From assembly GCA_035687745.1 (NCBI GenBank), contig DASRVA010000183.1:1-59872 (forward strand): DNA of 59,872 nt, given 5' to 3'. Position numbers and translations under genes: made by a program. Each line of letters opens with the position of its first letter. Position 1 is the first letter of the stretch. Under the pieces are notes generated by a model. The model was not told the DNA's origin, ran no database searches, and saw only the letters and a program-made list of their open reading frames with translations. Below are positions 8,559 through 35,812 of the stretch, in pieces. The stretch is from Gemmatimonadota bacterium (GTDB lineage: Bacteria > Gemmatimonadota > Gemmatimonadetes > JACCXV01 > JAHWKZ01).

Positions 8559-8616
8559 ACATGATGGGAGACGGGCGGGCCCGGGAGCGGACCCGTCCGC
8601 CGCGAGGCGTGAAGGC

Positions 8617-11544: not shown

Positions 11545-11609
11545 GCCTGCCTGTCCAAGGGCGTAGAGCATATACGATTCCCGAGGACGGCGTCAAATCA
11601 CTCCCCTTG

Positions 11610-11636
11610 GGAACCGGCCTCCCGCACACCCGCATT
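11610..11636 (+). promoter_or_regulatory. ECF-type promoter GGAACC-N17-CATT upstream of the spondin operon
   Basis: GGAACC ggcctcccgcacacccg CATT. Confidence 0.6.
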
Positions 11637-18504: not shown

Positions 18505-20217
18505 TCAGCGCCCCGCGGCGGCCAGCATCGTCCTGACGCCCTCGACGTTCAGCCGGACCCGGTAGAGCTCGCTCCGGGCGCATAGGTAGAGGGTCCGCCC
18601 GTCGGCGTCGCCCCACGCCATGTTGTGGACGTGGTTCGGGGTCCGGATCGTTCCCAGATGACGACCCTCCGGGGAGATGACCCAGAGACCGCCAGGCCCC
18701 GAGACATAGAGGTTCCCGATACGGTCCACCTTGACGCCGTCGATCGCGTCCTCACCCGGAGCCTCGGTCATGTCGAAGAAGACGCGCCCGTTCGACACGC
18801 TCGCATCGGGTGCGAGATCGTACGCCATCACGACCTTCCGCTTCTCGTCCCAGTTGCCGACATAGAGCGTCTTCTCGTCCGGCGACAGGGCGATCCCGTT
18901 GGGACCTTGGAGCTCGTCCGTGAGGAGCTTGAGCTCGCCCTCGTGGAGGGCATAGACGCCGCTGAAGGGGAGCTCCTTGCCGGGATCCTCGGTGAACTTG
19001 GGGAGGCCGAAGTAGGGATCTGTGATGAAGAGCGTCCCGTCCGATCGGTAGACGATGTCGTTGGGGCTGTTTAGGCGCTTCCCCTCGTAGCGGTCGGCGA
19101 GCACGGTCGTGACGCCGTTCCGCTCCTGACGGACCACGCGGCGGCGGCCGTGCTCGGCGATCGCGAGCCGGCCCTCGGGGTCGATGGCGAGCCCGTTCGA
19201 GCCGGGCTGCCGGTACTCCCCGATGTCGAAGCCGGCGTAGCCGCTCTTCGTGCGGTAGACGGAGACCTGGCCGTCCGGCGACCAGCGGTAGATCCGGTCG
19301 GCGTCGGGGTCGCTGAAGAGCAGGTACCCGTCGGGAGACCATACCGGCCCTTCGGTGAAGAGGAAGCCGGACCCGATCCGCTCGACGCGCGCGCCGGGGG
19401 GGACGGCGGCGTCCAGGGCCGGGTCCAGCCTTTCGATCTCGGCTTCGACCATCCGCTGGTCGGCGCCGAAACGCGGTGGATAGAACTCGAGCGTGGCCGA
19501 GCGGATCCAGATGAAGTTGCCGGGCGGATCCGAGAGCGGACCGTTGGCGCCGAAGACGGCGAGCTGGACGGTCTGGCCGGGTCGGGCATCGCTCGCGACG
19601 ACGACCCGGTTGGGGGCGTTCCACCCCTTGATGAGCGGCCCGCCGGTCTGGCCCAACGCGACCGGGAGCTTCCCGTCGATCCAGATCTCGGCATAGTCGT
19701 CGACCACGATCTCGAAGACTACCGTCGAGCCGGTCGGGTCGAAGCCGCCGATCCGCTCGGGGATCGTGAAGCGCATCCGGTACCAGTTGAACGAGAGCCG
19801 TCCCGTGCCGCGACGTCCCTCGAGAGAAGTGGGTTCCAGGACCTCCCACGCCGAGTCGTCGAAGTCGAGGCCGCCCGCCTTGGGCTCGATATCGTGGGTA
19901 CGGATCGGGTCGCCCGAAGGCCTCAGGTCCGCGCCCGGCGCCTGGTGATCGACCTCGACGATCGCAGCGTCGTGGTAGCGCCACGCGCCGCCGACCAGCG
20001 CCACGCCATCCGCCGTCCGCAGGTCGACGACCGCGACCGGCCTCAGCCCCGGCGCATCTTCCGTGACTTGAGCCGCGACGGCCCCGGGCGAAGCGAGCAC
20101 CGCCAGAGTGCCGAGCATGGGTATCGCGTGCGGGAAGAGAATTCGACGCGATCGATGAGCCGCGAAGAGGGTCATGTGGGATCCCCCGCCCGGTCGGTTA
20201 CGATGCAATTCGTTCAT
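18505..20217 (-). CDS. SMP-30/gluconolactonase with an N-terminal galactose-binding-like domain, exported
   Basis: FTEGPVW, GSNGLAID, RLNSPND, GPNGIALSPD, IDGVKVD. ATG 20217 overlaps the GMC stop; alternative ATG 20175. Confidence 0.9.
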   Translation of the reverse strand: MNELHRNRPGGGSHMTLFAAHRSRRILFPHAIPMLGTLAVLASPGAVAAQVTEDAPGLRPVAVVDLRTADGVALVGGAWRYHDAAIVEVDHQAPGADLRPSGDPIRTHDIEPKAGGLDFDDSAWEVLEPTSLEGRRGTGRLSFNWYRMRFTIPERIGGFDPTGSTVVFEIVVDDYAEIWIDGKLPVALGQTGGPLIKGWNAPNRVVVASDARPGQTVQLAVFGANGPLSDPPGNFIWIRSATLEFYPPRFGADQRMVEAEIERLDPALDAAVPPGARVERIGSGFLFTEGPVWSPDGYLLFSDPDADRIYRWSPDGQVSVYRTKSGYAGFDIGEYRQPGSNGLAIDPEGRLAIAEHGRRRVVRQERNGVTTVLADRYEGKRLNSPNDIVYRSDGTLFITDPYFGLPKFTEDPGKELPFSGVYALHEGELKLLTDELQGPNGIALSPDEKTLYVGNWDEKRKVVMAYDLAPDASVSNGRVFFDMTEAPGEDAIDGVKVDRIGNLYVSGPGGLWVISPEGRHLGTIRTPNHVHNMAWGDADGRTLYLCARSELYRVRLNVEGVRTMLAAAGR

Positions 20218-21785
20218 CCCAGTCTCTCCAGCAGGTGGTCGCCCACCCTGAGCGCGTTGGCGATGATCGTGAGCGCCGGATTCACCGCGCCCGACGAGGG
20301 GAAGAAGCTCCCGTCCACGACATAGAGGTTGTCGAGTTCGTGCGCCTTGCAGTTCCGGTCGAGGGCCGACGTCTTCGGATCGTTGCCGAAGCGGATCGTC
20401 CCGTTCTGGTGGGCCACGCCGGCGAGCGGGATCCGCTGACCCAGAAAGATGTTGCGGGAGAACAGGCCGACGTGGCAGTCGTGTCCGTGGACGGGGCACG
20501 CCCGCTGCTTCTGGAGGAGGTCCTTGAGCTTCGAGGTGAGCCGCTTGTGTCCCTCCTCGTTGTTCGGCTTGTACGCCAGGACGATGTTGCCCTCGCGGTC
20601 GAGGGAGACCCGGTTTTCGGGATCCGGGAGATCCTCCGAGGTGAGCCAGAAGTCGAGCGAGTGGGTGGCCATCGCCTCGAGCGTGAAGCCGGGCGCGATG
20701 GCGGGTGCGCCGGCTCGCAGGGTGTCGCGATCGAGCTTCCCGACGAACGAGATGTGGCCCATCGGGTACTCCCACTCGGGCGATCCGAAGTAGAAGTCGT
20801 TGACCGAGAGGGTCTTCTGGAAGACGGTCGGGTTGGGGCACTTCGAGATCGCCATCATGACCGAGTTCACGTGCCCCATGTAGTGGCGGCCGACAACGTC
20901 CGAGCCGTTCCCGAGTCCGCTGGGGTGCCTGTCGTTGGCGGATCGGAGCAGGAGGGCCGCCGAGTTGATGGCCCCGCACGCGACCGCGACCACGTCGGCC
21001 GTGAACGTCTCGGGGGCGCCATTCCGCTGAACGACCACGCGTTCCACCTCGCGCCCCGACCCGTTGGTCTCGAGCTTCGACACGTACGCGTCGGTCAAAA
21101 GGGTCACGTTGGGGTGCTGGAGGGCGGGGTCGACACAAAGGACCTGCGCGTCCGCCTTGGCGTACACGAGGCACGGATGGCCGTCGCAGGTCGAGCACCG
21201 GATGCACCGGCTCGCGCGCGGGTTCTTCTCGTCCAGCATGATCCCGAGCGGTGTGTGGAAGGGCCTCAGCCCCTGCGCCGCGAAGTCCTCGGCCAGGTGC
21301 TGGAGCCGAGGCTCGTGGCTCACCGCCGGGTGCGGGAAGGGCCCGGTCGCGCGCGGCTCGGTCGGATCCTCGCCGCGCTCGCCGTGGACCTGATAGAGCC
21401 GCTCGGCCTCCCCGTAATAAGGTTCCATGTCCTCGTACGAGACGGGCCAGGCGGGCGAGACGCCGCCGTGGTGTCGGATCTCGCCGAAGTCCTCCCTGCG
21501 CAGGCGGAAGAGAGCGGCGCCGTAGAACTTCGTGTTTCCGCCGACCCAGTAGTTGGTATGCGGGTGGAGGGGCTTCCCCTGGACGTCCCGCCAAACGTCC
21601 TTGGCGGTGTACCGCCCCTCGAGGTTGACCGCCCGCGTGCTCCAGTTGTCCTTCTCGCGCGGCACGTAGCTGCCGCGCTCGATGAGGAGGATCCGCTTTC
21701 CGGAGGGGGCCAGCCGCCAGGCGAGCGTGCCGCCCCCGGCGCCGGTCCCGATGATGATCGCGTCGTAGTGTCCGTTGCTCGTCAT
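20214..21785 (-). CDS. GMC family FAD oxidoreductase
   Basis: IIGTGAGGG, VGGNTKFYGA, HQNGT, NLYVVDGSFFPSSGAVNPALTIIANALR. Confidence 0.92.
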   Translation of the reverse strand: MTSNGHYDAIIIGTGAGGGTLAWRLAPSGKRILLIERGSYVPREKDNWSTRAVNLEGRYTAKDVWRDVQGKPLHPHTNYWVGGNTKFYGAALFRLRREDFGEIRHHGGVSPAWPVSYEDMEPYYGEAERLYQVHGERGEDPTEPRATGPFPHPAVSHEPRLQHLAEDFAAQGLRPFHTPLGIMLDEKNPRASRCIRCSTCDGHPCLVYAKADAQVLCVDPALQHPNVTLLTDAYVSKLETNGSGREVERVVVQRNGAPETFTADVVAVACGAINSAALLLRSANDRHPSGLGNGSDVVGRHYMGHVNSVMMAISKCPNPTVFQKTLSVNDFYFGSPEWEYPMGHISFVGKLDRDTLRAGAPAIAPGFTLEAMATHSLDFWLTSEDLPDPENRVSLDREGNIVLAYKPNNEEGHKRLTSKLKDLLQKQRACPVHGHDCHVGLFSRNIFLGQRIPLAGVAHQNGTIRFGNDPKTSALDRNCKAHELDNLYVVDGSFFPSSGAVNPALTIIANALRVGDHLLERLG

Positions 21786-21820
21786 GCTCGGTGTCCTGTC
21801 GTGATGGGTTCCCGGTCTGG

Positions 21821-21846
21821 AATGATCTCCGGGGGTCCCGGGTTCC
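21821..21846 (-). promoter_or_regulatory. ECF-type promoter GGAACC-N16-CATT upstream of the GMC gene
   Basis: GGAACC cgggacccccggagat CATT. Confidence 0.8.
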
Positions 21847-21869
21847 CGGTCCCGCCGGGCTCCCGGAAT

Positions 21870-23213
21870 TCAGACGGGACGGGAGGCCGGGAGAGGCTCC
21901 GCGACGGGCGCCGGAGGGGCACCCATGGGCAGCGGGGCAGCGAGGGCCGGCCTCTCGGTCGGGATCTGGGTCAGGTCCTTGGAGAAGAGGAGGTCGAGGG
22001 TCCAGTCGAGGACGACCCGTACCCGGCGCTCGAAGCGAGGGAGCTTCATCAGGTAGACGGAGCGCCAGAGCCACCACGCCAGGAAGCCCGAGAACGAGAA
22101 GCCGAACATCCGGGCGACCCCGGTCCGGCGGCCGGTGGCGGCCAGGAGTCCAAGGGTCGAAAACTGGAACGGCTCGAGCGGCCGGACGAGCTCACTCGCG
22201 GCCAGGTTCGCGGCCAGCACCTTGGCCTGCCGGATAGCGTGCTGAGCGGTCGGCGGATGGAACCCGCCCCGGCGCGTGTCCGGGACGGCCGCGCAGTCCC
22301 CGAGCGCCCACACCCCTTGCCATTCGGGGACCCTCAGCATGGGATCGACGCGGATCCGGCCGCGCTCGGTGGCGCAGGGAAGGCCGGCCACGAGCGGGTT
22401 GGGCGCGACCCCGGCCGTCCAGACGATCGTTCCGGCCCGCACCGCGCTGCCGTCCCCGAGGACGACCTGGTCCCCCTCCACGCGCAGGACGGCGGTCTGG
22501 GTGCGCACGTCGATCCCGCGCTCCCCGAGGACACGGCGCGTGTACTCGCCCAGCTCCGGACCCAGCTCGGGCAGGATCGCCGGAGCCGCTTCGACCAGGA
22601 CGACATGGATCAGCTCCTCCGACAGATGCGGGTAGTGGCGCACGGCGTCGTGGAGGAAGTCGTGCACCGCCGCCACGGTCTCGACGCCGGCGAAGCCGCC
22701 GCCGGCCACAAGAACGGTCAGGAGCGTGCTCCGATCCCCGCTCGCGCACTCGTAGTCGGCCTCCTCGAGGAGCGAGATCAAGCGGTTCCTCAAGCCGATC
22801 GCGTCGGCCAGCGACTTCATCGTGAGCGCGCGCTCGGCCAGCCCGGGCAGGCCGAAGAAGTTGGTCACGCTCCCGAGGGCAAGGACGAGATGCTCGTACG
22901 GGAGATCGTGGCGGTGGGATCCGCCGGCATGGGAGACGGCGACCCGCCGCTCCTCGAGGTCGATCTCCTCGACCTCGCCCACGACGAGCTTGCACTCCCG
23001 GATGAGCTTCCGGAGAGGGTTCACGATGTGGGTCACGTCCAGGTCGCTGGCCGCGACCTCGTGCAGCATCGGGGTGAAGAGGAGGAAGTTGTCACGGCTC
23101 ACGAGCGTGATGTCGAGGGACACGCCGGCATGCGCCTGGCGCTCGAGATGCCGGGCGGCGTAGAGGCCGCCGAAGCCGCCACCGAGGATGACCACCCGCG
23201 CGGGGGGTTTCAT
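21870..23213 (-). CDS. ndh: Type II NADH dehydrogenase (NDH-2)
   Basis: ATG 23213 overlaps the debranching-enzyme stop. VILGGGFGG, FTPMLHEVA, GGGFAGVE, ALGDCA, PPTAQHA. Confidence 0.88.
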   Translation of the reverse strand: MKPPARVVILGGGFGGLYAARHLERQAHAGVSLDITLVSRDNFLLFTPMLHEVAASDLDVTHIVNPLRKLIRECKLVVGEVEEIDLEERRVAVSHAGGSHRHDLPYEHLVLALGSVTNFFGLPGLAERALTMKSLADAIGLRNRLISLLEEADYECASGDRSTLLTVLVAGGGFAGVETVAAVHDFLHDAVRHYPHLSEELIHVVLVEAAPAILPELGPELGEYTRRVLGERGIDVRTQTAVLRVEGDQVVLGDGSAVRAGTIVWTAGVAPNPLVAGLPCATERGRIRVDPMLRVPEWQGVWALGDCAAVPDTRRGGFHPPTAQHAIRQAKVLAANLAASELVRPLEPFQFSTLGLLAATGRRTGVARMFGFSFSGFLAWWLWRSVYLMKLPRFERRVRVVLDWTLDLLFSKDLTQIPTERPALAAPLPMGAPPAPVAEPLPASRPV

Positions 23214-25222
23214 GCGCGAACCCTCCGGGGCGCGGACGCGCGAGCCCGGTTGGGCACGGCCAGGAGATCCAGGTCGAGACGCAAGGCCTCGCCGACCGAC
23301 CAGGCCTGGAACGGGCAGCCGCGTGGCGTGTGGGGTGGCTCGGCGTCGGCGATCTCGGAGATGTGGCCGAGACCGGCCGATTCCAGGTGGTCGAGAAGCG
23401 GCGCGAGAAAACGGCGGCGCGCTTCGAGCCGAGCCTGGACGCCGCCCCCCCGCACGCGCACCCAAGCCTCCACGAAGGGACCGAGGAGCCACGGCCAGAC
23501 GGTGCCCTGGTGATAGGCGCTGTCCCGTGCCACGGGATCGCCCTCGTAGTGCGGCCGATAGCCAGCCTCCTCGGGCGCCAGGGAGCGCAGCCCGAGCGGC
23601 GTCCAGAGCCGGCCCTCGACGGCGTCCACGACCTGCCGGGCCCGCTCGCCGTCCAGGACCGGATAGGGGAGGCCCCCCACCGCGAGGATCTGGTTGGGCC
23701 GGAACGTCGGATCCACCGCGCCCGTGCGGCCGTCCGGGTCGACCACGTCGTGGAGCCACCCGGACGGGTTCCAGAAGCGCTCGGAGAATGCGGTGCGCCC
23801 GGCCTCGATCAGGTCGCGCCAGCGCGGCGATCGCGCCGCCCCCACCTCGAGCGCGTTCAGCCACAGCGCTTGGACCTCGACGGGCTTGCCGATCCGTGGG
23901 GTCACGACCCAGTCGCCGATCCGGGCGTCCATCCAGGTGAGCTGGACTCCGGGCTCGCCGGCGGCGAGGAGACCGTCCGAGTCGAGGCGGATGCCGTAGC
24001 GGGTACCGCCTTGGTACCCCTCCAGGATCCGCTCGACGGCGGTCAGGAGCGCATCCCGCTCCGGCCCCGGGATCCGGCGCCGTCGGCGCTTCGCCGCCGT
24101 CAGGTAGTCGTGCACGCCGACCGCGTACCAGAGCGACGCGTCGACCGCATTGAACTCGGGGGCGTCGCCCGAGTCCACAAAGCGGTTGGGTAGCATCCCC
24201 TGGCTCACGGCCCCGGCCCACTCGAGGAGGATCGCGCGGGCCTCGGAGAGGCGACCGGTCGCGAGGCAGAGGCCGCGGATCGCGATGAAGGTGTCGCGCC
24301 CCCAGTCGGTGAACCACGGATAGCCGGCCACGATCGTCCGGCCGCGACCGCGGCGGACGAGATAGACGTCGGCGGCGCGCTCGAGCGGTGTCGAGAAAGC
24401 CGCGCGCCGCTTCCGCTCGCGGTCGAAGGCCCGTCGGGCTTCGACCAGAGGTGAGGACCGGCGGGGGGCCGATGCGCCGTTCTCGGCCGGATTGGCCAGG
24501 GGCCCGACAAGCCCCTCGAGCACGAGCGCGGCCTCGCCGCTCGCAAGATCCCACGTCAGAACACCCGGCGAGGCGAGATCCTCCCGGAAGTCGTGGCCCC
24601 GCGCGCGCTCTTCCGCGTACAGGAAATCCCGATACCAGAGCGGATCGTGGGCGTAGGTCGCGTTGGCACGGACCGCGATCCCGGGGACCCCGTCGTACGG
24701 GCGCCATACCAGGTGCCCGCCGAGAGTCGCGGGCTCGAAGCGGAAGGCGGGGTTCTCGTGATGGAGCGCGTGGTAGTCCCGACCCGAGAGGAGAAGCCGC
24801 GCCACGAGACGCATCCCCTCGGTGGGACGGCGGGCCTGCCACCGGACCACGACGCGCGGGGCGTCATGGACGGCGACGACCTCCTGATCGATCTCCAGCC
24901 CGCTCTCCAGCCGATACCGCCAGCGCGGCCAGGGGCTCCAGGCGAAGTTGACGATCCGCGATGGGCTGTCCGGGACCCGGACGTCCGGCAGGTAGCGCTG
25001 GGCGGTCAGCGGGTGGCGCTCGCCACCTGACTCCACCCAGGCGTCGAGCCCGTTGACGAGCATGTACCGCCCGGTGGGAGGCGTGGCGGCCACCAGGAGG
25101 AGCGCGTGGTAGCGCCGCGTCCGCTCGCCTCCGACCGTCCCCGACGCGAAGCCGCCGAGGCCGTCGGCCTCGAGCCACTCGGCATCCAGGTTGTAGCCGG
25201 GGACGACCGGACGGTCAGGCAC
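23210..25222 (-). CDS. Glycogen debranching enzyme (amylo-alpha-1,6-glucosidase, GH133-like) with N-terminal domain
   Basis: EWLEADGLGGFASGT, TRRYHALL, AGYPWFTDWGRDT, LTWMDA, GKPVEVQALW, YHQGTVWPW, GCPFQAWSV. Confidence 0.93.
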   Translation of the reverse strand: MPDRPVVPGYNLDAEWLEADGLGGFASGTVGGERTRRYHALLLVAATPPTGRYMLVNGLDAWVESGGERHPLTAQRYLPDVRVPDSPSRIVNFAWSPWPRWRYRLESGLEIDQEVVAVHDAPRVVVRWQARRPTEGMRLVARLLLSGRDYHALHHENPAFRFEPATLGGHLVWRPYDGVPGIAVRANATYAHDPLWYRDFLYAEERARGHDFREDLASPGVLTWDLASGEAALVLEGLVGPLANPAENGASAPRRSSPLVEARRAFDRERKRRAAFSTPLERAADVYLVRRGRGRTIVAGYPWFTDWGRDTFIAIRGLCLATGRLSEARAILLEWAGAVSQGMLPNRFVDSGDAPEFNAVDASLWYAVGVHDYLTAAKRRRRRIPGPERDALLTAVERILEGYQGGTRYGIRLDSDGLLAAGEPGVQLTWMDARIGDWVVTPRIGKPVEVQALWLNALEVGAARSPRWRDLIEAGRTAFSERFWNPSGWLHDVVDPDGRTGAVDPTFRPNQILAVGGLPYPVLDGERARQVVDAVEGRLWTPLGLRSLAPEEAGYRPHYEGDPVARDSAYHQGTVWPWLLGPFVEAWVRVRGGGVQARLEARRRFLAPLLDHLESAGLGHISEIADAEPPHTPRGCPFQAWSVGEALRLDLDLLAVPNRARASAPRRVRA

Positions 25223-27920
25223 GGACGGCTGCCCTCCTCTGCGGGCGGGCGCTTGCCGGAGCGCGCTCTCGCGCCAGGTCCATCAGGAGCGGCGCCACGA
25301 GGGCGGTCCAGCCGGTCTGGTGGCTCGCTCCCACTCCCCGTCCCGTGTCGGCGTGAAAGTACTCGTAGAAGAGGACGAGCTCCCGCCAGTGAGGATCCTC
25401 GGCGTAGCGCGCCTCGGCCCCGTGGACGGGGCGCCGACCTTCGGGATCCCGCAGGAAAATGCTCGAGAGCCGGCGCTGGATCTCGCGCGCCGCTTCCTGC
25501 AAGGTGACCCGCGTCCCGCTCCCCGTCGGGCACTCGACCAGGAGCGAGTCGCCGTAGAAATGGTGGTACCGCTCGAGCGCCTCGACGAGCAGGAAGTTCA
25601 TCGGGAACCAGATCGGGCCCCGCCAGTTCGAGTTGCCACCAAAGACCGAGATGTTGGACTCGCCGGGCACGTACTCGACCCTGTACTCGTGGCCGTCGAG
25701 GCTTAGCACGAAGGGCCGCTCTCGGTGGACGAGCGAGACGGAGCGGATCCCGTACGGCGACAGGAACTCCCTCTCGTCGAGGAGATAGCCGAGCACCCGC
25801 TCCAGCCGCTCACGGGTCGGAATCGCCAACAGCCGGTGCCCGTGCCGCTCCTCGCCCGACAGTATGGGGCAGGCGATCGAGCGGGCCAGGTCGGGGCGGT
25901 TCTCGCGGAACCACTCGAAGCGCTTCATGAATCCCGGCAGCCGCGCGAGCACGTCCGACTCCAGGATCTCGCACGCGAACAGCGGCGCCAGCCCGACCAG
26001 CGACCGGACGCGCATCGGCGTACGAACGCCAAGCACGTGAAGCTGATCGTAATAGAAGCCGTCCTGGTCGTCCCAGAGGCCGCTCCCTCCGAGGGTGTTC
26101 ATGGCATCGGCGATGGCCATGAAGTGCTCGAGGAACTTGGACGCGATGTCCTCGTACGCGGGATCCTCGGCGGCGAGCTCGAGGGCCATCGACAGCATGG
26201 TCGCGCAGTAGAACGCCATCCACGCCGTCCCATCGGCCTGCTCGAGGTGTCCCCCCGAAGGGAGCGGCTGGGAGCGGTCGAAGACGCCGATGTTGTCGAG
26301 ACCCAGGAACCCTCCGGCGAAGAGGTGCCGTCCCTCCACGTCCTTCCTGTTGACCCACCACGTGAAGTTCAGGAGGAGCTTCTGAAACGTGCGCTCGAGG
26401 AACAGCCGGTCCCGCTGCCCACGGGGCCCGGTCATTTTGTAGACGCGCCAGCAGGCCCAGGCATGGACGGGCGGGTTCACGTCCCCGAAGGCGAACTCGT
26501 AGGCCGGGATCTGGCCGTTGGGATGCATGTACCACTCGCGCAGGAACAGGACGAGCTGCTCCTTGGCGAATTCCGGGTCGAGCCGCGCGAACGGGGCCGT
26601 GTGGAAGGCAAGGTCCCAGGCCGCGTACCATGGATACTCCCACTTGTCGCACATCGAGATGACGTCGCGGTTGTAGAGATGCGGCCAGTCGGCGTTGCGG
26701 CCGCGACGGCGGCCGGCGGGCGGCGGGGGCTGCGCGGGGTCGCCCTCAAGCCACTGGTCGACGGCGTAGTAGTAGAACTGCTTGGACCAGAGGAGCCCCG
26801 CGCGGGCCTGGCGCAGGACGGCGCGCTCGTCGGCCGTGGCAGCGGGTGGCGTGATCGAATCGTGATAGCGATCCGCCTGCTCCATGCGGGCCTTCAGGGT
26901 GCGGTTGAACGGGGCGCCGAACGGTGGTTCGGCCAGTGCCCTCTCCGCACGCAGCCGGAGCCGGAGGACGGCGGATTCGCCCGGCTTGACCTGCAGCCGG
27001 TACCAGACTGCGGCCTTGGTCCCGGTCTCTCCGGGATTGACCGCGTCCACGACGTCGTCGACCACCGCGCGGTGGAAGGCGTCCTTGACGAACGGGGTCG
27101 GGTTGGGGGTGCTGTAGAGCCGCTCGAGGTTGGTCTCGTTCTCGGTGAACAGGAGCTGCGGCGCCTTCCGGTCCGGCCCGCGGGCGGCGCTCAACCGATA
27201 GCGGCCGAGCTCGGCGTGCTCGGCGACCACGTCGTCGCCCTCCCGCCACAGGTGAGGTCGCTCGGGGTACCCCTCGCCGGTCCGCCCCCACGACCAGGTG
27301 TTCCGGAACCAGATCGTGGGCAGGACGTGGATGGCGGCCGTCTCGGGGCCCCGGTTCGAGATCGTGAGTCGGATCAGGAGGTCCTCGGGGTCGGCCTTGG
27401 CGTATTCGGCCAGGACGTCGAAATAGCGCTCACCCTCGAAGACGCCGCTGTCCAGAAGCTCGAACTCCGGATCGAGAAGCCCGCGCCGGTGGCCCTCCTC
27501 GACCAGCCGGGCGTAGGGGAACTCGGCCTGCGGGTACTTGTAGAGGGCCTTCATGTACGAGTGGGTGGGGGTCGAGTCGAGGTAGTAGTAGCACTCCTTG
27601 ACGTCCTCGCCGTGGTTGCCCTCGGGGCCGGTCAGTCCGAACAGCCGTTCCTTGAGGATCGGGTCACGCTCGTTCCAGAGCGCGAGGGCGAACGCCAGCC
27701 GACACTGCCGGTCGCAGATCCCCAGCAACCCGTCCTCGCCCCAGCGATAGGCGCGGCTGCGGGCGTGGTCGTGCGGGAAATAGCTCCACACCGACCCGTC
27801 GGCGGAGTAGTCCTCCCGAACCGTGGCCCATTGGCGCTCCGACAGGTAGGGGCCCCACCTCTTCCAATGGCGCTCACGGCGCTTGTCCTCCTCGAGCCGG
27901 GCGTGCTCCTCGGTAGCCAA
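25215..27920 (-). CDS. GH63/MGH1-like glycoside hydrolase (glucosidase)
   Basis: TTG start after [61 protein letters not shown]. Confidence 0.88.
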
Positions 27921-28006
27921 ATCGGATTCCCTCCGGACTGGGGTGATGCGCGGTCGGGCGCGCTCGTCGGGCGCCGGGGCGCGACGACGGGCGGATCGAT
28001 TCCCCG

Positions 28007-28032
28007 AATGTCGGTGGCTCTTGGTGGGTTCC
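28007..28032 (-). promoter_or_regulatory. ECF-type promoter GGAACC-N16-CATT upstream of the GH63 gene
   Basis: GGAACC caccaagagccaccga CATT. Confidence 0.8.
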
Positions 28033-28068
28033 CGGAAGGGGTCCTGGCCGCGGGGACGCGGACGCCCG

Positions 28069-28332
28069 CTAGGAGGGTTCTTCCCCGGATTCCAGGCTGT
28101 CTAGGAGCCTGCGCACCTTGGCCCTCAGCGTGTCGGGCATCGTGATGCGCCGCAAGGAGCTCTTGATCTCACGCAGGAAGGTCATCTCGAACGCGTACTC
28201 GTGAGCGCACTCCGCACAGTCGTCGAGGTGCTCCTCGACCCGTGCGATCTCCTCCGCGGACAGCTCTCGATCGACGTAATCGTTGAGCCGCCGGAAGACC
28301 TGTTCGCACGTATAGCGACTGCCGTCGATCAT
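28069..28332 (-). CDS. Zinc-binding (ZAS, zf-HC2) anti-sigma factor, RshA/RsrA-like, soluble
   Basis: TCEQVFRRLNDYVDREL...HLDDCAEC (Cys plus HxxxCxxC), MPDTLRAKV; no TM helix. Confidence 0.88.
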   Translation of the reverse strand: MIDGSRYTCEQVFRRLNDYVDRELSAEEIARVEEHLDDCAECAHEYAFEMTFLREIKSSLRRITMPDTLRAKVRRLLDSLESGEEPS

Positions 28333-28390
28333 GGGTAGGCAGCCACGATATCCCGTGGGTCCATCTCTGAGCAATGGTCGTGCCGGGAGA

Positions 28391-29650
28391 TCAGGCGGCC
28401 ACCTCGGCGGGCGTCGGCCTCGCCGCCGTGGGAACGACCACGGCGTCCTCGACCGAGGCCGTCGACGGCATCCGTTCCGCCAGGGCGGCCGCCCGCTGCT
28501 CCAGGTCCTGCAGCACGTTCATGAAGGCCACGAACGCGTCGTACGGCGTCTCGAAGGGGCTGAAGTAGGCGTGGACGCCGCCATCGTCCCAGTCCTTGGT
28601 CGACATGTAGTAGACGTGGTCGCTCGTCGTGAGCCGTCGCCAGCGGCCGATGAGCTCTTCGTCACGCGTGGCCAGAACCTCCGGTCGCAGTCGATAGAGG
28701 CGCTCGTGGGCGGCCTGCTGAAGACGGTTTCCGAGCCATGCGCTGACGTCGCGCTCGCTGTCGGCCCAGGAGGTCGGCCGCGGGAAGGAGAGCCGTGCGA
28801 CCGGGGGGCGGTCGAGCACCTCCGACGGCGTGAGGGTCGAGAGTCCCCGCCGCTCGAGCTCACCCGGAAGAGCCTTCAGGAACGCGAAGATCCCCGTCTC
28901 CTCCCACTGGTGCTCGCCGAACGTCTCGTAGTCCAGAAAGAGATGGGCGGAGTCGCCCCCGCTGCCGGCGATCCAGTCGGCGTACTTGTCGGCCGTGAGC
29001 GGCCACCCGCTCCAGCCCCGTGCACCGAAGCGGAAGCCGACGTCGTCGCTGAGCCGGTAGTTGCGGGGCAGGATGCGCAAGCTTGGCGCGGACTCCGCTG
29101 CGTAGACGAAGTTCGGCGAGCGCCACCCCAGGATCTGGTCCGCGCCCTCGACGAGGGCGCCCCGGAAACCCAGCCGCTCGATCGTCGAGGCCAGGGGATC
29201 GAAGTACACGAGCTCCGTGTTGCGGAAGACGCGCGGGCAGCCCCCGAACACGCGCGCGACCGTCTGCCGGTGGAGCCGGACCTGGGCTTCGAACTCCTCC
29301 TCGTGCGCGAGCGCCGACAGGGAGTGGTGGTAGGTCTCGCCCAGCACCTCGACGCCGCCCGTCGCGACCAGACCCTGAAAGCTCTCGAGCGCCTCCGGTG
29401 CCTCGGCCTCGAGCTGCTCGATCAGGACCCCGCTCAAACTCAGGGCGAGCCGGAAGCGGCCGTCCGTCCGGCGAATCAGCTCGGCGAGCAGCCGGTTCGT
29501 CGGGATGTAGCATTTCTCGGCCACCCGGCGCACGATCGCGCGATTGGCCTCGTCGTCGAACCAGCGGCCGCCGTTCCCGATGTCGAAAACACGGAATCGG
29601 GAGAGCCGGTACGGCTGGTGGACCTGGGCGTAGAGGACGACGTCAGGCAT
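28391..29650 (-). CDS. Glycoside hydrolase family 57 (alpha-amylase-like)
   Basis: QVHQPYRL, ETYHHSL, FRNTEL, NYRLSDDVGFRF, DYETFGEHQW, TSDHVYYM. Confidence 0.93.
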   Translation of the reverse strand: MPDVVLYAQVHQPYRLSRFRVFDIGNGGRWFDDEANRAIVRRVAEKCYIPTNRLLAELIRRTDGRFRLALSLSGVLIEQLEAEAPEALESFQGLVATGGVEVLGETYHHSLSALAHEEEFEAQVRLHRQTVARVFGGCPRVFRNTELVYFDPLASTIERLGFRGALVEGADQILGWRSPNFVYAAESAPSLRILPRNYRLSDDVGFRFGARGWSGWPLTADKYADWIAGSGGDSAHLFLDYETFGEHQWEETGIFAFLKALPGELERRGLSTLTPSEVLDRPPVARLSFPRPTSWADSERDVSAWLGNRLQQAAHERLYRLRPEVLATRDEELIGRWRRLTTSDHVYYMSTKDWDDGGVHAYFSPFETPYDAFVAFMNVLQDLEQRAAALAERMPSTASVEDAVVVPTAARPTPAEVAA

Positions 29651-30896
29651 GGACTCGCTCCCGGATAGCCTGGGCGTAGGTCTCGGCGGTCAAGCGTGCC
29701 GGCTCGTCCAGACCGAACTGGGGACCGGCGATCTCCATCCGGCCCCGCTCGCTGAGCTCCTGTCGCAGGATGGGATGACGCAGGATGCCGACTACCTGGT
29801 CGGTCATTCGATCGATGTCCCAGAAGTCGGCGCGGAAGGCGTTGCGGACGACCTCGGCCGCCCCCGACTCGCGCGGGATGACGCAAGGGGTGCCGGCCCG
29901 GAGGCTCTCCAGGACGACCAGGCCGAAGGGCTCGCTGACCGACGGCATGACGCAGACCGCGGCCATCCGGAAGGCGCGCTCGACGTCGGGGCCGGTCAGC
30001 CCGCCCGCCACGTGCAGGCGGTCGGCCAGGCCGAGCTCGACGCCGCGCTCGATGATCCGGGGCAGCATGTCCCCGGTTCCGGCGATGACGAAGCGCGCTT
30101 CCGGCACGTGACGGGCGACACGTCCCGCGACTTCGATGAAGTAGTCGGGTCCCTTCTGGCGCGTGACCCGGCCGATGAAGAGAACGACCGGCTCGTCCTC
30201 GGGGAATGGGCTCGGGGGCGTGGACTCGTCGAGCGCCGGACGCTCGTCGATCCCCCACGGGATCACGTCCACGCGCGCCTCGTCGATCCCGTAGCCGCGC
30301 ACGACCTGCCGGCGCATCCAGCGGCTGTTGCAGATCACCCGGTCGGCCGCGGCCAGTCCCTCCCGCTCGCGGCGCTGGATCTCGGGGTTGGCGCCCTCGA
30401 AGGAGCGGTCGTGCTCGGTGGCGTGGAGATGAGCGACCAGGGGTCTCGCGGACACGGCCCGCGCGCGAAGCCCCGCCTCGTACGTGATCCAGTCGTGGCA
30501 GTCGATGACGTCGTGGGGCTCCTCGCGTGCGATCTCCGCGGCGGCGGCGGTGAAGCGCTCGACCTCCTCGAACAGGTTCCAGCCGTAGGGAAGGAAGGCG
30601 CCTCGCGCGCCCGGATCCCCGACCCGCTCCTCCAGGGTGACCGCTTCGGGGCCTGCGTAGGGAAGCAGGGGCGAGTCGATGACGATCCGCCTGAGGCGGG
30701 TCATGCGGTCGCGGCTGCTGACCAGGCGCAGGCGTGGGACGGGGGACCGGGCCGCCGGGAAGGGGACGACCAGCGTCACGTCGACGCCCCTGCGGAGGAG
30801 GCCCTTCACGAGCCCCAGGGTGGCGGTCGCCAGGCCGCCTGCCTGGTAAGGCGGAAATTCCCATCCGAACATGAGCACGCGCACCGGGACTCCCAT
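29643..30896 (-). CDS. Glycosyltransferase family 4 (glycogen synthase-like)
   Basis: VLMFGWEFPP, DCHDWIT, HATEHDRS, QKGPDYF, SEPFGLV. Start set to ATG 30896 because the promoter at 30921 lies inside the longer ORF-track extension. Confidence 0.92.
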   Translation of the reverse strand: MGVPVRVLMFGWEFPPYQAGGLATATLGLVKGLLRRGVDVTLVVPFPAARSPVPRLRLVSSRDRMTRLRRIVIDSPLLPYAGPEAVTLEERVGDPGARGAFLPYGWNLFEEVERFTAAAAEIAREEPHDVIDCHDWITYEAGLRARAVSARPLVAHLHATEHDRSFEGANPEIQRREREGLAAADRVICNSRWMRRQVVRGYGIDEARVDVIPWGIDERPALDESTPPSPFPEDEPVVLFIGRVTRQKGPDYFIEVAGRVARHVPEARFVIAGTGDMLPRIIERGVELGLADRLHVAGGLTGPDVERAFRMAAVCVMPSVSEPFGLVVLESLRAGTPCVIPRESGAAEVVRNAFRADFWDIDRMTDQVVGILRHPILRQELSERGRMEIAGPQFGLDEPARLTAETYAQAIRERVHA

Positions 30897-30920
30897 CCGT
30901 CTCAAGGTGATGCTCACCGT

Positions 30921-30946
30921 AATGCGGGCCGCGCGGGCGCGGTTCC
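30921..30946 (-). promoter_or_regulatory. ECF-type promoter GGAACC-N16-CATT upstream of the GT4-GH57-anti-sigma operon
   Basis: GGAACC gcgcccgcgcggcccg CATT. Confidence 0.8.
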
Positions 30947-31030
30947 GAGGCTTCTGGGGGCGGGACCCGCGACGGCGCATTCGGTCGCCGCCGCGGGGCA
31001 AGGGGCGGGACGGTTGCGGGGAGAATCGGA

Positions 31031-31450
31031 TCAGGCCAGGCGGCCTACCCGGGACGTCGTGGCCACGGTCAGCGCGGCCGCCATGAGGACCAGATCCTTG
31101 AGCAGGAACTCACCGGCCAGGGTCAATTTCGGGAAGCCCGCCTCGCCGTAGCTCACGGCGGGGGCGATCACGAAGATCGTGAGCGTCCCCACGAAGAGGC
31201 CGGCGACGAAGATGCCGACCAGCGGGAGCGCGACGCCGGCGATCAGGAGGATCGCGGCCAGGACCTCCAGCGCCCCCAGCAGATACACGAAGCCGGCCGA
31301 GGCCAGGAACGGCAGCGAGGCCTCGAGCAGACCGACCACCGGGCTCGGGTCGACGAATTTGAGGGCCCCGATCCAGAGCAGGACGATGGCCAGGCTCAGT
31401 CGCAGGAACGTCGGGGAAACGCGGTTCAGTAGACGCATCAGATCCTCCAT
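31031..31450 (-). CDS. DUF417 (YkgB/RclC-like) membrane protein
   Basis: LRLSLAIVLLWIGALKF...LGALE...GEFLLKDLVL. Confidence 0.8.
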   Translation of the reverse strand: MEDLMRLLNRVSPTFLRLSLAIVLLWIGALKFVDPSPVVGLLEASLPFLASAGFVYLLGALEVLAAILLIAGVALPLVGIFVAGLFVGTLTIFVIAPAVSYGEAGFPKLTLAGEFLLKDLVLMAAALTVATTSRVGRLA

Positions 31451-31495
31451 CTCTCCTCCAGGGCTGGTTCATCCGGCGTTTGATTCGTGAGCCGG

Positions 31496-31521
31496 AATGA
31501 GGGCGGGGCCGGTAAGGTTCC
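31496..31521 (-). promoter_or_regulatory. ECF-type promoter GGAACC-N16-CATT upstream of the DUF417 gene
   Basis: GGAACC ttaccggccccgccct CATT. Confidence 0.8.
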
Positions 31522-31531
31522 CCGGTCGGGC

Positions 31532-32326
31532 TCAGCCGGTGACGGCCTGGGCCAGGTTTCGATAGCTGCCGCCGTCCCGGCGGGCGGCATGCCTCAAGGT
31601 CCCGTGGACGAGCCGGGACGCCGTCCTGGTGCGGGCGGCGCGGGGCGCCGGCCGGGCGGCATCGGCCGCCGCCGGCGCGATCTCCTCGCGGTCGAGGCCG
31701 AGGATCTGCACGGGGACCCAGCCGAACCCTTCCACCGGCTCGGAGAGCCCGATCGCCCTCGCCCGCTTCCAGCTCGGGAGCGCGCGGGTCATCGCCTCGG
31801 TCACCAGCACGTATTCCGGATACGGCGAGGAGTTCTTGAGAAGGCGGTAGGCCAGGATCACCGACGGGCCCAGGAGATCGGGTCGCTTCCCCGGCGTGAT
31901 GACGGTCTCGCCGGCGTGGGCGACGAACTTGAGCCGCAGATCGCGGAGCCCCTCGCAGGCCGAGCAATCGCAGACCCGCTCGGCTTCGATCCGGGCCTGC
32001 TCGCGGACGAAGGATTCCAGGAGCCGGGGGACCGATTCAAGGACGGCCCGTCGCGCCGTGAGCGTGTCGGGCCGGCAGAAGAAGAGGCTGCAGTCGCCTG
32101 TAGCCCGACCCCGCTCGAGCGGCACGTCCGGCGTCCGTGCGACGGCGTGAAGCAGAAGATCGATCAAGGTCTGGGCGTGGAGCAGGCTGATCCGGGGCAT
32201 CCTGAGGAAGCTCGTGTAGCCCCCGATGTCGGCGAGGAGGACGACCACGGGCTCGACGGTGGGCGCCTCGAAGCGCGGACCCGTTGCGGGCGGTTTCGGT
32301 TTGTGGGGTCGGGCCGCTGCGGACAA
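31532..32326 (-). CDS. DUF2652-like protein (class III cyclase-like fold)
   Basis: TTG 32326 after AGGAGGTG. LLADIGGYTSF, GDCSLFF, CDCSAC, LKFVAHAG, LLGPSVILAYRLLKN. Confidence 0.75.
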   Translation of the reverse strand: MSAAARPHKPKPPATGPRFEAPTVEPVVVLLADIGGYTSFLRMPRISLLHAQTLIDLLLHAVARTPDVPLERGRATGDCSLFFCRPDTLTARRAVLESVPRLLESFVREQARIEAERVCDCSACEGLRDLRLKFVAHAGETVITPGKRPDLLGPSVILAYRLLKNSSPYPEYVLVTEAMTRALPSWKRARAIGLSEPVEGFGWVPVQILGLDREEIAPAAADAARPAPRAARTRTASRLVHGTLRHAARRDGGSYRNLAQAVTG

Positions 32327-32356
32327 GTTGATCACCTCCTGGTTTCGAGCCCTTGA

Positions 32357-32382
32357 AATGACGGCTGGCGACCCGCGGTTCC
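32357..32382 (-). promoter_or_regulatory. ECF-type promoter GGAACC-N16-CATT upstream of the DUF2652 gene
   Basis: GGAACC gcgggtcgccagccgt CATT. Confidence 0.8.
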
Positions 32383-32944: not shown

Positions 32945-33052
32945 GGAGTGGGGGACACCGGGTGGAGTCGCACTCGGTCGCTCCGGAATGTGTGGTGCAA
33001 CTACAGCGTTCACGAGAGGAAAGGAGAAACTGCCGCGGGAAAGGAGACGGTC

Positions 33053-35737
33053 ATGACGCAATTCTCTCGGTTGCTGCTTCCCCTCCTTGTATCGATTCCG
33101 ATCTTCGCCGTTCTCCCTCGGGCCGCTTCCGCCCAGACGGGTACGGTGTCCGGCACGGTCGTCGACGAGCAGGGCCAGCCGATCCCGCTCGCGACCGTGG
33201 TCGTCGAAGGGACGAACCTGGGCGCCGTGACCGACGAGAACGGTGCGTACGTCATTCGTGAGGTCCCGGCGGGCCCGCAGACGATGGTGGCCCGGGCGTT
33301 CGGCTACCGGATGCAGGCGGAGACCGAAGACGTCTCGGCCGGCGGCGATGAGAGCCAGGGCTTCGTGCTCGCCCAGGACTATCTGGGCATGGAGACGATC
33401 GTCGCGACCGCGCAGCGCGAACCCCGCATCAAGCTCGAGACGAGCACCGCGATCACGACACTCCAGCCGCAGGACATCGAGCGCGCGGCACCCCGAAGCA
33501 CGGCCGACCTGCTCAAGGTGGTCCCCGGCTTCTACGTGGAGAGCTCGGGCGGAGAGGTGGGCGGAAACCTCTTCGCACGCGGTCTCCCGGCCGACGGATC
33601 GTTCCGCTACGTGGCGCTGCTCGAAGACGGGATGCCGGTCTACGATTCGACGGAGCTGTCGTTCGTCAACGCCGATATCTTCGTCCGACTCGACAACAAC
33701 ATCCGCCAGATCGAAGCCGTGCGGGGCGGAAGCGCGGCGCTCTTCGGCAGCAACGCCCCCGGCGGGCTGATCAACTTCCTCAGCAAGACGGGGGGCCCGC
33801 AGACATCGGGGATCCTGACCTTCGAGGGTGGCGAGGCGGGGATGTTCAAAGTCGACGCCAACGTCAACGGGCCGGTCGGGGAAACCGACTGGCGCTACAG
33901 CGTGGGCGGCTTCTACCGCAGCGATGACGGCATCCGGGATCCCGGCTTCACCGCCTCCGAGGGCGGACAGATCAAAGCCAACATCGGACGGGTGTACGGC
34001 AACGGCTATGTGCGCTTCTACGGCAGGGCGCTCTTCGACAGCAACATCTTCTATCTACCGCTGCCGATCCAGAACCCGACCGACCCCGAATTCGTCTCCG
34101 GATTCCCCGACGACGGGACGCTGACCAGCGAGGAGGGGGTCGGCAAAGTGGTTCCGCTCCCCGACGGAGACGAGCTCGTTCTCGAACTGGATGACGGCCA
34201 GCGGCAGGAGGGCGCCTGGATCCAGGCGGATCTGGGGTACGACCTCGGCGGCGGCTGGTCGATCGAGAACAAGTTCCGATACATGGACGTGGATCACTAC
34301 TGGAACGCGATGCTCCCGTTCGAGCTCGTCGACGCCAACGACTGGGCGGCGGGGTTCGTGGAGGATACTCCGGAGGGTGCGGGCTTCCGACTGACGTTCG
34401 CCGACGGCGGACAGTCGTTCGACACGCCCAACGACCTGCTGAGCCTCGGCGGCCAGTGGTTCGTCCAGATTCCGATGTCCGACGTCTCCGACCAGCTCCA
34501 GCTCACCAAGCAGGTCGGCCGTCACGACATCACGGTCGGAACCTATCTCAGCCGCTACGAGGCCGACCCCAACTGGAACTTCAACGACATGGTCACGAAC
34601 GTGGAGAACGCCCCGCGCTTCGTGGATCTCGAGATCCTGAACGAGGCCGGTGAAGTGGTCCGCGAGGTCACCAACGAGGGCTTCCGCCAGTACCTGTCGC
34701 TGTACGTGAACGCCGAGCAGAGCACGACCGTGGCCGCTCTCTTCGCCGGTGACGAGATCGCGCTGGGCGACCGCTTCGACCTGGATGTTGGAGTACGGTA
34801 CGAGCACAACACGTTCGACATCCGGACCGAGGAGACCGGCTCGTTCGACGTCGCGGGCGGAACCGATGCGCACACGGGCCTCAACTTCGGAACCGGCGAG
34901 TTCGACGAGTTCGAGCGCGACTTCGAGGAGCTGGCCTTCTCGGTGGGCGGGGACTATCAGATCAGCGATCAGGTCTCCATCTATGGGCGCGGGACGAACG
35001 GCTTCAAGATGCCGATCATGGACAACGTGCGAAGCGCGGGCGCGAGCGGCGTGCTCGAGCCCGAGGACGTAGCGCAGGTCGAGGGCGGGATCAAGGTCGG
35101 TTCGCCCAAGGTCGGCCTCTCGGCCGTCGCCTACTGGCTCGAGATCCAGGATTTTCCGAGCGGGGACGTCCAGATCGATCCGGAGACCGGCGAGACCGAG
35201 TTCGTCACCCGCTTCGCGGGGGAGGCGCGGACGATCGGGACGGAGATCGAGGTCGTGGCGGCACCGATCCCGGCGCTCCGGCTGAACGGCACAGCGACCT
35301 TTCAGAACCCCGAATACACCGATTTCTTCACCGAGGTGGGCGGGGAGTGCCAGAATCCGGCCGGGACCCTTTGCGACATCTCGGGCAATCGCGTGCGCCG
35401 GATTCCACAGACGATCTTCGAGGTCGGCGCCGCCTTCGACGTCGGGAACCTGACGCTGAACGGCGATGTCAACTTCGTCGGGGAGCGGTTCTCGAACAAC
35501 GAGAACACGATCGTCCTGGAGAGCTACTCGATCCTCGATCTGGGGGCGGCGTATCGCATCCCGGACTTCGGGGTGACCGCCCGAGTGGATCTCAGCAACG
35601 TGACCGACGAGGGCGCCAACGCGCTCACGGAGGGAAATCCCAGAATCGACGAGAGCGTGGGCGCCCAGAGCACGCTCTTTCTCGCCCGGCCCGTTCTCCC
35701 GCGGCGGGTGACGGCGGGGATCAGCTACGAGTTCTGA
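33053..35737 (+). CDS. TonB-dependent receptor, probably for a sugar (trehalose/glucoside)
   Basis: Signal peptide, carboxypeptidase-regulatory-like domain, plug (IVATAQR...IEAVRGGSAALFG), barrel ending ISYEF; followed by trehalase. Confidence 0.93.
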   Translation: MTQFSRLLLPLLVSIPIFAVLPRAASAQTGTVSGTVVDEQGQPIPLATVVVEGTNLGAVTDENGAYVIREVPAGPQTMVARAFGYRMQAETEDVSAGGDESQGFVLAQDYLGMETIVATAQREPRIKLETSTAITTLQPQDIERAAPRSTADLLKVVPGFYVESSGGEVGGNLFARGLPADGSFRYVALLEDGMPVYDSTELSFVNADIFVRLDNNIRQIEAVRGGSAALFGSNAPGGLINFLSKTGGPQTSGILTFEGGEAGMFKVDANVNGPVGETDWRYSVGGFYRSDDGIRDPGFTASEGGQIKANIGRVYGNGYVRFYGRALFDSNIFYLPLPIQNPTDPEFVSGFPDDGTLTSEEGVGKVVPLPDGDELVLELDDGQRQEGAWIQADLGYDLGGGWSIENKFRYMDVDHYWNAMLPFELVDANDWAAGFVEDTPEGAGFRLTFADGGQSFDTPNDLLSLGGQWFVQIPMSDVSDQLQLTKQVGRHDITVGTYLSRYEADPNWNFNDMVTNVENAPRFVDLEILNEAGEVVREVTNEGFRQYLSLYVNAEQSTTVAALFAGDEIALGDRFDLDVGVRYEHNTFDIRTEETGSFDVAGGTDAHTGLNFGTGEFDEFERDFEELAFSVGGDYQISDQVSIYGRGTNGFKMPIMDNVRSAGASGVLEPEDVAQVEGGIKVGSPKVGLSAVAYWLEIQDFPSGDVQIDPETGETEFVTRFAGEARTIGTEIEVVAAPIPALRLNGTATFQNPEYTDFFTEVGGECQNPAGTLCDISGNRVRRIPQTIFEVGAAFDVGNLTLNGDVNFVGERFSNNENTIVLESYSILDLGAAYRIPDFGVTARVDLSNVTDEGANALTEGNPRIDESVGAQSTLFLARPVLPRRVTAGISYEF

Positions 35738-35792: not shown

Positions 35793-35812
35793 CCGTTGTG
35801 GAGCGGGTGGCC

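Follow-up and report, generated by a model that had tools for sequence, protein, structure and literature searches.

The window analysed here is a 59,872-nucleotide contig (DASRVA010000183.1) of a Gemmatimonadota bacterium, which at positions 28069-28332 encodes a small zinc-binding anti-sigma (ZAS) protein with no sigma factor gene beside it. Our comparison of related loci indicates that this protein is probably the cognate RsrA-like zinc anti-sigma factor of an extracytoplasmic function (ECF) sigma factor encoded 20 kb away, and that the two genes are the separated halves of a once-adjacent pair. An initial annotation had proposed such a split cognate pair, and the proposal gains support from the adjacency of homologous genes, the slot they share in the gene cluster, the inheritance of the split, and a relic of the sigma gene at a related locus. 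The two genes are:

28069-28332, minus strand: ZAS anti-sigma protein of 87 aa; starts with the ATG at 28332, range includes the stop
7473-8108, minus strand: ECF sigma factor of 211 aa, the putative partner of the ZAS protein; Pfam Sigma70_r2 and r4_2

A six-frame search with E. coli RpoE returns the product of 7473-8108 as the sole ECF sigma of the window, and its distance to the ZAS gene is 19.96 kb, in line with the roughly 20 kb first reported. The sigma gene is preceded by a STAS-domain gene and followed by an HbpS-like/cupin gene, so that no anti-sigma domain adjoins it, as had been noted before. The ZAS gene, at the other end of this 20-kb interval, belongs to a group of genes for alpha-glucan metabolism:

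29643-30896, minus strand: GT4, a glycogen-synthase-like glycosyltransferase and the first gene of the operon; Pfam Glycos_transf_1, Glyco_transf_4, Glyco_transf_5
28391-29650, minus strand: GH57 glycoside hydrolase, second gene of the operon; Pfam Glyco_hydro_57, 236 bits
25215-27920, minus strand: GH63/MGH1-like glucosidase; Pfam MGH1-like_GH, Glyco_hydro_63
23210-25222, minus strand: amylo-alpha-1,6-glucosidase (glycogen debranching, archaeal type; GDE); Pfam GDE_C 348 bits, GDE_N 186 bits

Comparison of this neighbourhood across genomes indicates how the pair was originally arranged. A scan with the ZAS alignment, taking one genome per GTDB species and annotating the hits with the window proteins, gave 80 loci, mostly from metagenome-assembled genomes (MAGs) of Gemmatimonadota. 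A sigma homolog lies directly upstream of the best ZAS gene in 73 of these loci; of the remaining seven, three sit at contig edges and four lack the link. Adjacency in related genomes, which the initial annotation proposed to check, is therefore typical of these homologous loci, though it is no structural necessity for a ZAS protein. GH57 directly precedes the sigma gene in 19 loci, GH63 follows ZAS in 26, and both hold in 15. On account of these counts, the common arrangement is GT4-GH57-SIGMA-ZAS-GH63-GDE, in which an HbpS-like/cupin gene often follows a few kb further on. The slot in the window reads GH57-ZAS-GH63, with the sigma gene missing. Canonical Gemmatimonadota clusters (L068, L082, L087) contain the same families in the same order and with the same promoter motif as the window; in them, however, the sigma gene stands between GH57 and ZAS behind its own ECF-type promoter, whereas in the window this segment is absent and the sigma gene is found elsewhere. 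ZAS homologs of 56-61% identity are encoded directly downstream of an ECF sigma gene (canonical loci L002 and L005), and the partner sigmas of this type are 56-57% identical to the window sigma over ~180 residues.

Some related loci depart from this picture in other ways. At several, a second ZAS copy precedes GH63 or GDE and has an ECF motif of its own. In one GTDB MAG (L071, 9259-9519) a sigma-less ZAS gene follows uppS and precedes GH63-GDE, and at L006 (4532-7232) the order is sigma-SGL-DoxX-ZAS, the ZAS gene lying 1.8 kb from sigma behind its own ECF motif.

The split is shared by the closest relatives of both genes. The closest ZAS orthologs (74-75% identity; L001 and L009) occupy a DUF2652-DoxX-GT4-GH57-ZAS arrangement without a sigma gene, and orthologs of the sigma at 91%, 83% and 71% identity (L092-L097) occur as STAS-sigma pairs with a 4-nt overlap and no ZAS gene, followed by the HbpS/cupin gene where the short contigs reach that far. 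L099, from the same sample as L001, has the STAS-sigma arrangement too. At L104 both halves are found on one contig, with the sigma gene ~5 kb from the ZAS gene, in the order large enhancer-binding protein (EBP), GG-N10-GC promoter, STAS, sigma, two divergent genes, and GT4-GH57-ZAS-GH63-GDE-NDH2. Between L104 and the window, the sigmas are 61-64% identical, depending on the alignment, the ZAS proteins ~62-64%, and the L104 EBP scores 491 bits against the window EBP. The window and L104, both on contigs long enough for the comparison, each hold exactly one sigma and one ZAS gene of this type within 5-20 kb.

L104 also retains a trace of a lost sigma gene. The 21 codons directly before its ZAS ATG (13963-14027) read RLRWRVAVEHGVVPEAGKERV, and this matches the C-terminal tail of the intact ZAS-linked sigma of L014, LLWRVAVERGLVPEAVKERA, with a local score of 76, compared with at most 41 over 300 shuffles. 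The match indicates that a sigma gene was deleted from the slot and that its last codons were left in front of ZAS. This relic, together with the prevalence of the adjacent form, suggests that evolution ran from the adjacent to the split state. The 58-nt GH57-ZAS spacer of the window holds no convincing relic of a sigma gene; a doubtful 'W..HGIS' trace in it, shared with L009, is not claimed as one.

The product of 28069-28332 begins MIDGSRYTCEQVFRRLNDYVDRELSAEEIARVEEHLDDCAECAHEY; in outline it reads MIDGSRYTCEQ...EEHLDDCAEC.... Judged by profile and ligand pattern, it is a class I zinc-binding anti-sigma domain protein. It matches Pfam zf-HC2 (PF13490) with 46 bits, above the gathering score of 22.2, and its zinc-ligand pattern C9...H35xxxC39xxC42 consists of C9, H35, C39 and C42, all four of them invariant among 30 homologs. 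The spacing from Cys to His is 26 residues, equal to that in RsrA, where the corresponding residues are C11 and H37. A profile built from the 30 homologs retrieves RsrA (5frf, E 8e-9) and RsiW (5wuq) among solved structures, and homologs of the protein bear the JGI label 'TIGR02949 family'. No hydrophobic segment is present in the protein (maximum Kyte-Doolittle 19-residue mean 0.02), which indicates that it is soluble. Reading frame, zf-HC2 match, ligands and gene order therefore agree with the earlier description of a soluble Cys...HxxxCxxC protein as the third gene of a GT4-GH57 operon. Its further assignment, and that of the sigma, to the SigH/SigR type needs some qualification. The best NCBIfam model for the ZAS protein is that of RsrA (TIGR03988), at 51.8 bits and under the 62.5 cut-off; the best for the sigma is SigH_actino (TIGR02947), at 123 bits where the cut-off is 251, and its top PDB match is M. 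tuberculosis SigH (98 bits). SigH and RsrA are thus the closest known relatives, while both window proteins fall below the equivalog level.

Having lost its adjacent partner, the ZAS protein might conceivably no longer act on any sigma, being either the product of a decaying gene or a small zinc or redox protein recruited to another role in glucan metabolism. We consider such a leftover role highly improbable. Sigma-less ZAS orthologs are under purifying selection, with dN/dS values of 0.08-0.24 among them, and the four zinc ligands are retained along with the other family-invariant positions (T8, D18, D21, R22, E23, L24, F48 and P66). Moreover, the split arrangement persists out to relatives whose ZAS is only as similar as that of L104.

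The window sigma carries features that connect it to sigmas with a ZAS partner. Its linker signature (P)xLYLYxRTAExGxH is common to ZAS-linked sigmas and lacking from ZAS-less paralogs, and its Kimura distances are 0.59-0.64 to the former versus 0.68-0.95 to the latter. In region 4.2, the window sigma has exactly the same stretch, VGTVRSRLHR, as the two ZAS-linked sigmas with which it was compared. A neighbour-joining tree of the sigmas recovers the STAS-linked clade in 40 of 40 bootstraps, and in 30 of 40 with L006 included. The ZAS-less paralog occurs at L017, L053 and L066, wedged between ZAS and GH63 (for example L053 10296-15021), where its neighbours are a Ser/Thr kinase of ~870 aa and a short sigma-54 activator. 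That the window sigma is an ortholog of this paralog was considered and rejected on the distances and on the absence of the linker signature from the paralog.

Several observations weigh against the pairing of the ZAS protein with the window sigma. Two sigma-ZAS loci are present in each of five GTDB genomes (L031/L039, L028/L045, L053/L068, L025/L090 and L046/L056). The mirror-tree test is weakly positive, with r = 0.45 for the window pair; the medians are 0.63 for true pairs and 0.14 for mismatched ones, which places the window pair at the 22nd percentile of the former and the 81st of the latter. Deep nodes of the sigma tree place the window sigma relative to the paralogs in 2-3 of 40 bootstraps, and because of this low resolution we relied on the linker signature to assign the type of sigma. 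The AlphaFold2 (AF2) monomer of ZAS, with three helices, reaches a pLDDT of 70.6 (moderate confidence), and Foldseek with this model finds nothing in the PDB at E <= 0.001; we gave this outcome no weight as evidence. Finally, STAS rather than ZAS might be the chief regulator of the sigma, ZAS then being secondary.

The first two of these observations, along with the extra ZAS-less sigma paralogs and extra ZAS copies at some loci, would fit a situation in which ZAS partners another sigma of the same family encoded outside the contig, the window sigma is governed by its sigma-54 promoter and STAS alone, and the shared neighbourhood is historical. This appears unlikely to us, as ZAS occupies the slot from which, by the L104 relic, a sigma gene was deleted, while the window sigma bears the linker signature of ZAS-linked sigmas and both the window and L104 offer a single candidate of each kind. 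The window ZAS also groups with sigma-linked ZAS copies (distances 0.37-0.42) rather than with the second paralogs (0.46-0.74). Pairing of the ZAS protein with the sigma at 7473-8108 hence remains the explanation we favor.

The promoter motif of the sigma family would tie the ZAS operon to the same regulator. For 74 sigma genes linked to ZAS, bipartite words were enumerated in the preceding 260 nt, and the top de novo word was GGAAC-N17-C[G/A]TT, whose two variants were found in 16 and 15 sequences, compared with 6 for the top word after shuffling. In the window, GGAACC-N16-CATT occurs five times versus 0.00 expected from 100 dinucleotide-preserving shuffles. A position weight matrix (PWM) derived from 94 instances, ccGGGAACC-N15-GC[G/A]TT, detects on either strand of the window only these five sites. 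All of them belong to the minus strand and precede a gene start by 24-90 nt:

30921-30946, minus strand: ECF-type promoter upstream of GT4-GH57-ZAS, GGAACCGCGCCCGCGCGGCCCGCATT; PWM score 19.3; ends 24 nt before the GT4 ATG
28007-28032, minus strand: ECF-type promoter between ZAS and GH63, upstream of GH63-GDE-NDH2
21821-21846, minus strand: ECF-type promoter upstream of the GMC oxidoreductase gene
31496-31521, minus strand: ECF-type promoter upstream of DoxX/DUF417, also present before DoxX in L001 and L006
32357-32382, minus strand: ECF-type promoter upstream of DUF2652, also present in L001

The motif at 30921-30946, which the initial annotation had pointed out, is therefore real, and it is the same as the one obtained de novo from ZAS-linked sigma genes. 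This shared motif supports the earlier view that the glucan operon GT4-GH57-ZAS is sigma-dependent. The site before GT4 is conserved in L001, and the GH63 site forms a conserved island within otherwise diverged spacers. At the related loci, motif matches lie upstream of sigma (35), GH63 (33), extra ZAS copies (18) and GT4 (7), and also of GDE and DoxX. On the minus strand of the window, GT4 is followed by GH57 with an 8-nt overlap and then, after the 58-nt gap, by ZAS. This gap yielded no terminator-like site, and the PWM detects no ECF motif in it, which suggests that ZAS depends on the GT4 promoter and would be co-transcribed with GT4 and GH57.

Elements of this kind, with a GGAAC -35 and a CGT-like -10, are common to several ECF groups, and a second ECF gene probably lies just past the right end of the window beside an RskA-like gene. 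The five sites might in principle be read by another ECF sigma of similar specificity, which would leave the ZAS operon outside the control of the window sigma. We judge this to be quite improbable, since the motif comes from sequences preceding genes of the sigma's own family, where it represents a classical autoregulation site, and co-occurs with the gene cluster of the family across ~80 loci. The identity of the region 4.2 stretch between the window sigma and the two ZAS-linked sigmas points the same way. Reading of the motif by the window sigma thus stays the preferred interpretation.

The predicted regulon is compact, occupying a 12-kb island (20214-32382, minus strand) with five perfect ECF-type promoters. 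Beyond the glucan genes, it would comprise:

21870-23204, minus strand: NDH-2-type NADH dehydrogenase, directly after GDE and in the same order in L104; Pfam Pyr_redox_2, NDH2_C
20214-21785, minus strand: GMC oxidoreductase
31031-31450, minus strand: DoxX/DUF417 membrane protein, with a weak RclC-like match
31532-32326, minus strand: DUF2652 protein

A further element is supported by weaker evidence, being a variant with a longer spacer that the N17 PWM misses:

11610-11636, plus strand: N18 motif variant upstream of a spondin-domain lipoprotein gene (11748-12524) and the oxidoreductase genes that follow it

The content of the regulon, with DoxX, NDH-2, GMC oxidoreductase and the HbpS-like protein, would be compatible with a theme of oxidative or electrophile stress. 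The HbpS-like protein is encoded next to the sigma gene:

6511-7383, minus strand: secreted HbpS-like/cupin protein (Pfam), downstream of sigma; N18 motif variant at 7477-7503

It is also found downstream of GDE in many canonical clusters. The possibility that this protein acts as a ChrR-like anti-sigma was rejected, because it gives no match to an anti-sigma domain and resembles a regulon member; our reading of its relatives, which have a signal-peptide-like N-terminus, also speaks against it.

Control of the relocated sigma gene seems to differ from that of the canonical copies. Neither its coupling to a STAS gene nor its sigma-54 promoter figured in the initial annotation. The elements concerned are:

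8105-8374, minus strand: STAS-domain protein, 89 aa, whose stop overlaps the sigma start (ATGA); Pfam STAS_2 27.7 bits, slightly under the cut-off
8430-8444, minus strand: sigma-54-type promoter TGGCAC-N5-CTGC (GG-N10-GC) upstream of STAS-sigma, TGGCACGCGGGCTGC
8617-11571, minus strand: sigma-54 EBP with GAF-PAS-GAF-AAA+-HTH_8 domains; Pfam Sigma54_activat 242 bits, GAFTGA in the translation

The promoter is the single match in the window, with 0.14 expected. Its TGGCAC and TGC are invariant in L092, L095, L096 and L097 in spite of diverged flanks, and a GG-N10-GC element also precedes the STAS homologs of L099-L104. Homologous EBPs are encoded upstream of STAS in L102 and L104, and the STAS-sigma coupling is kept in L092-L097, L099 and L104. 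No ECF motif is found upstream of STAS-sigma in the window, the best PWM score being -7.3. Taken with the conserved sigma-54 promoter, this suggests that positive autoregulation of the sigma has given way to external control, with the anti-sigma feedback retained. In L104, the EBP (2803-8250, 1815 aa) is fused to Pkinase and AAA_16 domains, which suggests a different sensory input into the same cassette.

Structure prediction assigns a STAS fold to the product of 8105-8374. Its AF2 model has a pLDDT of 89, and the top Foldseek matches are RsbV (6m36), SpoIIAA (1tid) and RsfB, with TM scores of 0.77-0.79. Across nine homologs compared by eye, the conserved Gly is preceded by S, A, A, A, A, T, M, A and M, so the phosphorylatable Ser is not conserved. 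An RsbW/SpoIIAB-type kinase anti-sigma, recognizable as a HATPase_c protein, was not found in the window. A metagenome scan with the STAS protein gave one weak locus. Its homologs are few, yet they recur beside other ECF families, each time behind a GG-N10-GC element; one such locus, from Polyangiaceae, has the order STAS-ECF-NrsF and another SpoIIE-EBP-STAS-...-ECF-ZAS. Homologs were located at:

L101, 6001-6264: STAS homolog
L102, 6001-6270: STAS homolog
L104, about 8430-8688: STAS homolog

The family has the invariant signature MLRIT...EGR...LDLAGV...C, with one Cys, and is coupled to three unrelated ECF families, from Gemmatimonadota, Polyangiaceae and a third lineage. A possible, if rather doubtful, reading of this recurrence is that the sigma-54/EBP/STAS cassette is a portable module for ECF control. 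The short, non-phosphorylatable STAS protein might then be a new anti-anti-sigma or a sigma escort, made 1:1 with the sigma and countering ZAS, in a three-part partner switch without a kinase. In its main text, the 2021 paper that re-classified the ECFs (PMC7826278) contains neither this recurrent STAS-ECF coupling behind sigma-54 promoters nor any mention of STAS, glycogen or Gemmatimonadetes.

The evolution and operation of the circuit can be pictured as follows. In the ancestor, sigma and ZAS would have been adjacent within GT4-GH57-SIGMA-ZAS-GH63-GDE, and GGGAACC-N15-GC(A/G)TT promoters would have let the sigma transcribe its own gene, ZAS and those of glucan metabolism. In the window lineage, the sigma gene would then have been removed from this slot together with its own promoter, the working copy coming to lie behind a sigma-54 promoter and a GAF/PAS EBP, in translational coupling with an RsbV-like STAS gene. 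ZAS would have been left behind, to be made as the third gene of GT4-GH57-ZAS from the sigma-dependent GT4 promoter. Upon sensing its signal, the EBP would act with sigma-54 to produce STAS and sigma. Free sigma would turn on a regulon of at least five promoters, covering the glucan enzymes, DoxX, DUF2652, NDH-2 and the GMC oxidoreductase. As the same burst would also make ZAS, the sigma would be sequestered again upon ZAS binding and the negative loop closed. For such dynamics, the description as a delayed pulse offered earlier would be reasonable.

The proposed pair can be compared with several characterized systems. SigR-RsrA of Streptomyces coelicolor and SigH-RshA of M. tuberculosis, which represent ECF12 with a soluble ZAS, likewise have a small soluble Cys...HxxxCxxC anti-sigma. 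The SigR promoter consensus is GGAA(C/T)-N17-18-(C)GTT, and the window promoter is of the same kind. The window differs from SigR-RsrA and SigH-RshA in its sub-equivalog scores, in that its two genes are 20 kb apart, and in that its sigma would be driven by sigma-54 rather than autoregulated. The predicted regulon consists of alpha-glucan metabolism and oxidoreductases, in contrast to the thioredoxin genes of those systems. A link to mycothiol is not expected, because the host is Gemmatimonadota-like and not an actinobacterium. The window ZAS may or may not sense thiol oxidation as RsrA does.

HrpL (ECF32) of Pseudomonas syringae is an ECF sigma transcribed via sigma-54 and enhancer-binding proteins (PMC5263251). 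It provides a precedent for sigma-54 control of an ECF, as proposed for the window sigma. HrpL controls type III secretion and is not known to have a ZAS anti-sigma or a coupled STAS protein. RsbV, SpoIIAA and RsfB share the fold of the sigma-coupled 89-aa STAS protein; unlike RsbV and SpoIIAA, the latter lacks the conserved phospho-Ser and is coupled to an ECF sigma, and the sole candidate anti-sigma is ZAS. A class I anti-sigma is encoded next to about 79% of Gemmatimonadetes ECFs, and control by 'orphan ASDIs', class I anti-sigma domains encoded elsewhere, has been raised as a possibility for ECFs that lack such a neighbour (Casas-Pastor et al. 2020, PMC7406223). That idea was a hypothesis for other phyla, whereas here a specific putative pair can be traced to an adjacent ancestor, with a relic.

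Partners of ECF sigmas and anti-sigmas are normally assigned by gene adjacency, and ECFs without such a neighbour are usually treated as regulated in other ways. The locus described here appears to be a traceable natural case of an adjacent pair pulled apart, with a deletion relic, in which the split was then maintained by selection. It cautions that an 'orphan' anti-sigma can be a genuine partner. The rearrangement would have changed a circuit in which the sigma induces itself and its inhibitor into one in which an external sigma-54 input produces the sigma, which then induces its inhibitor but not itself, providing a concrete pair for asking how circuit topology alters the response. In the Gemmatimonadota, a phylum that has been studied little, it would also connect a SigH/RsrA-like switch with a regulon of alpha-glucan and oxidoreductase genes.

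Several other features of the window deserve mention. Near the glucan cluster, one long open reading frame call (35798-38710, plus strand) combines trehalase and radical SAM domains, probably representing two genes, and stands beside a TonB-dependent receptor (32948-35737). Overlapping genes at 17806-18434 on the minus strand encode a PIN-domain toxin and a Phd/YefM antitoxin. A tandem pair of PA2779-family small proteins (4263-5116, minus strand), slightly under the NCBIfam cut-off, is located downstream of genes for an EVE-domain and a GAF-domain protein. The window's right edge (59312-59776, minus strand) encodes a protein with an RskA_C (anti-sigma-K type) domain, whose N-terminus and presumed ECF sigma lie past the contig end. 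The contig sequence was found in no RNA run; the DNA runs that hold it come from a rhizosphere metagenome.

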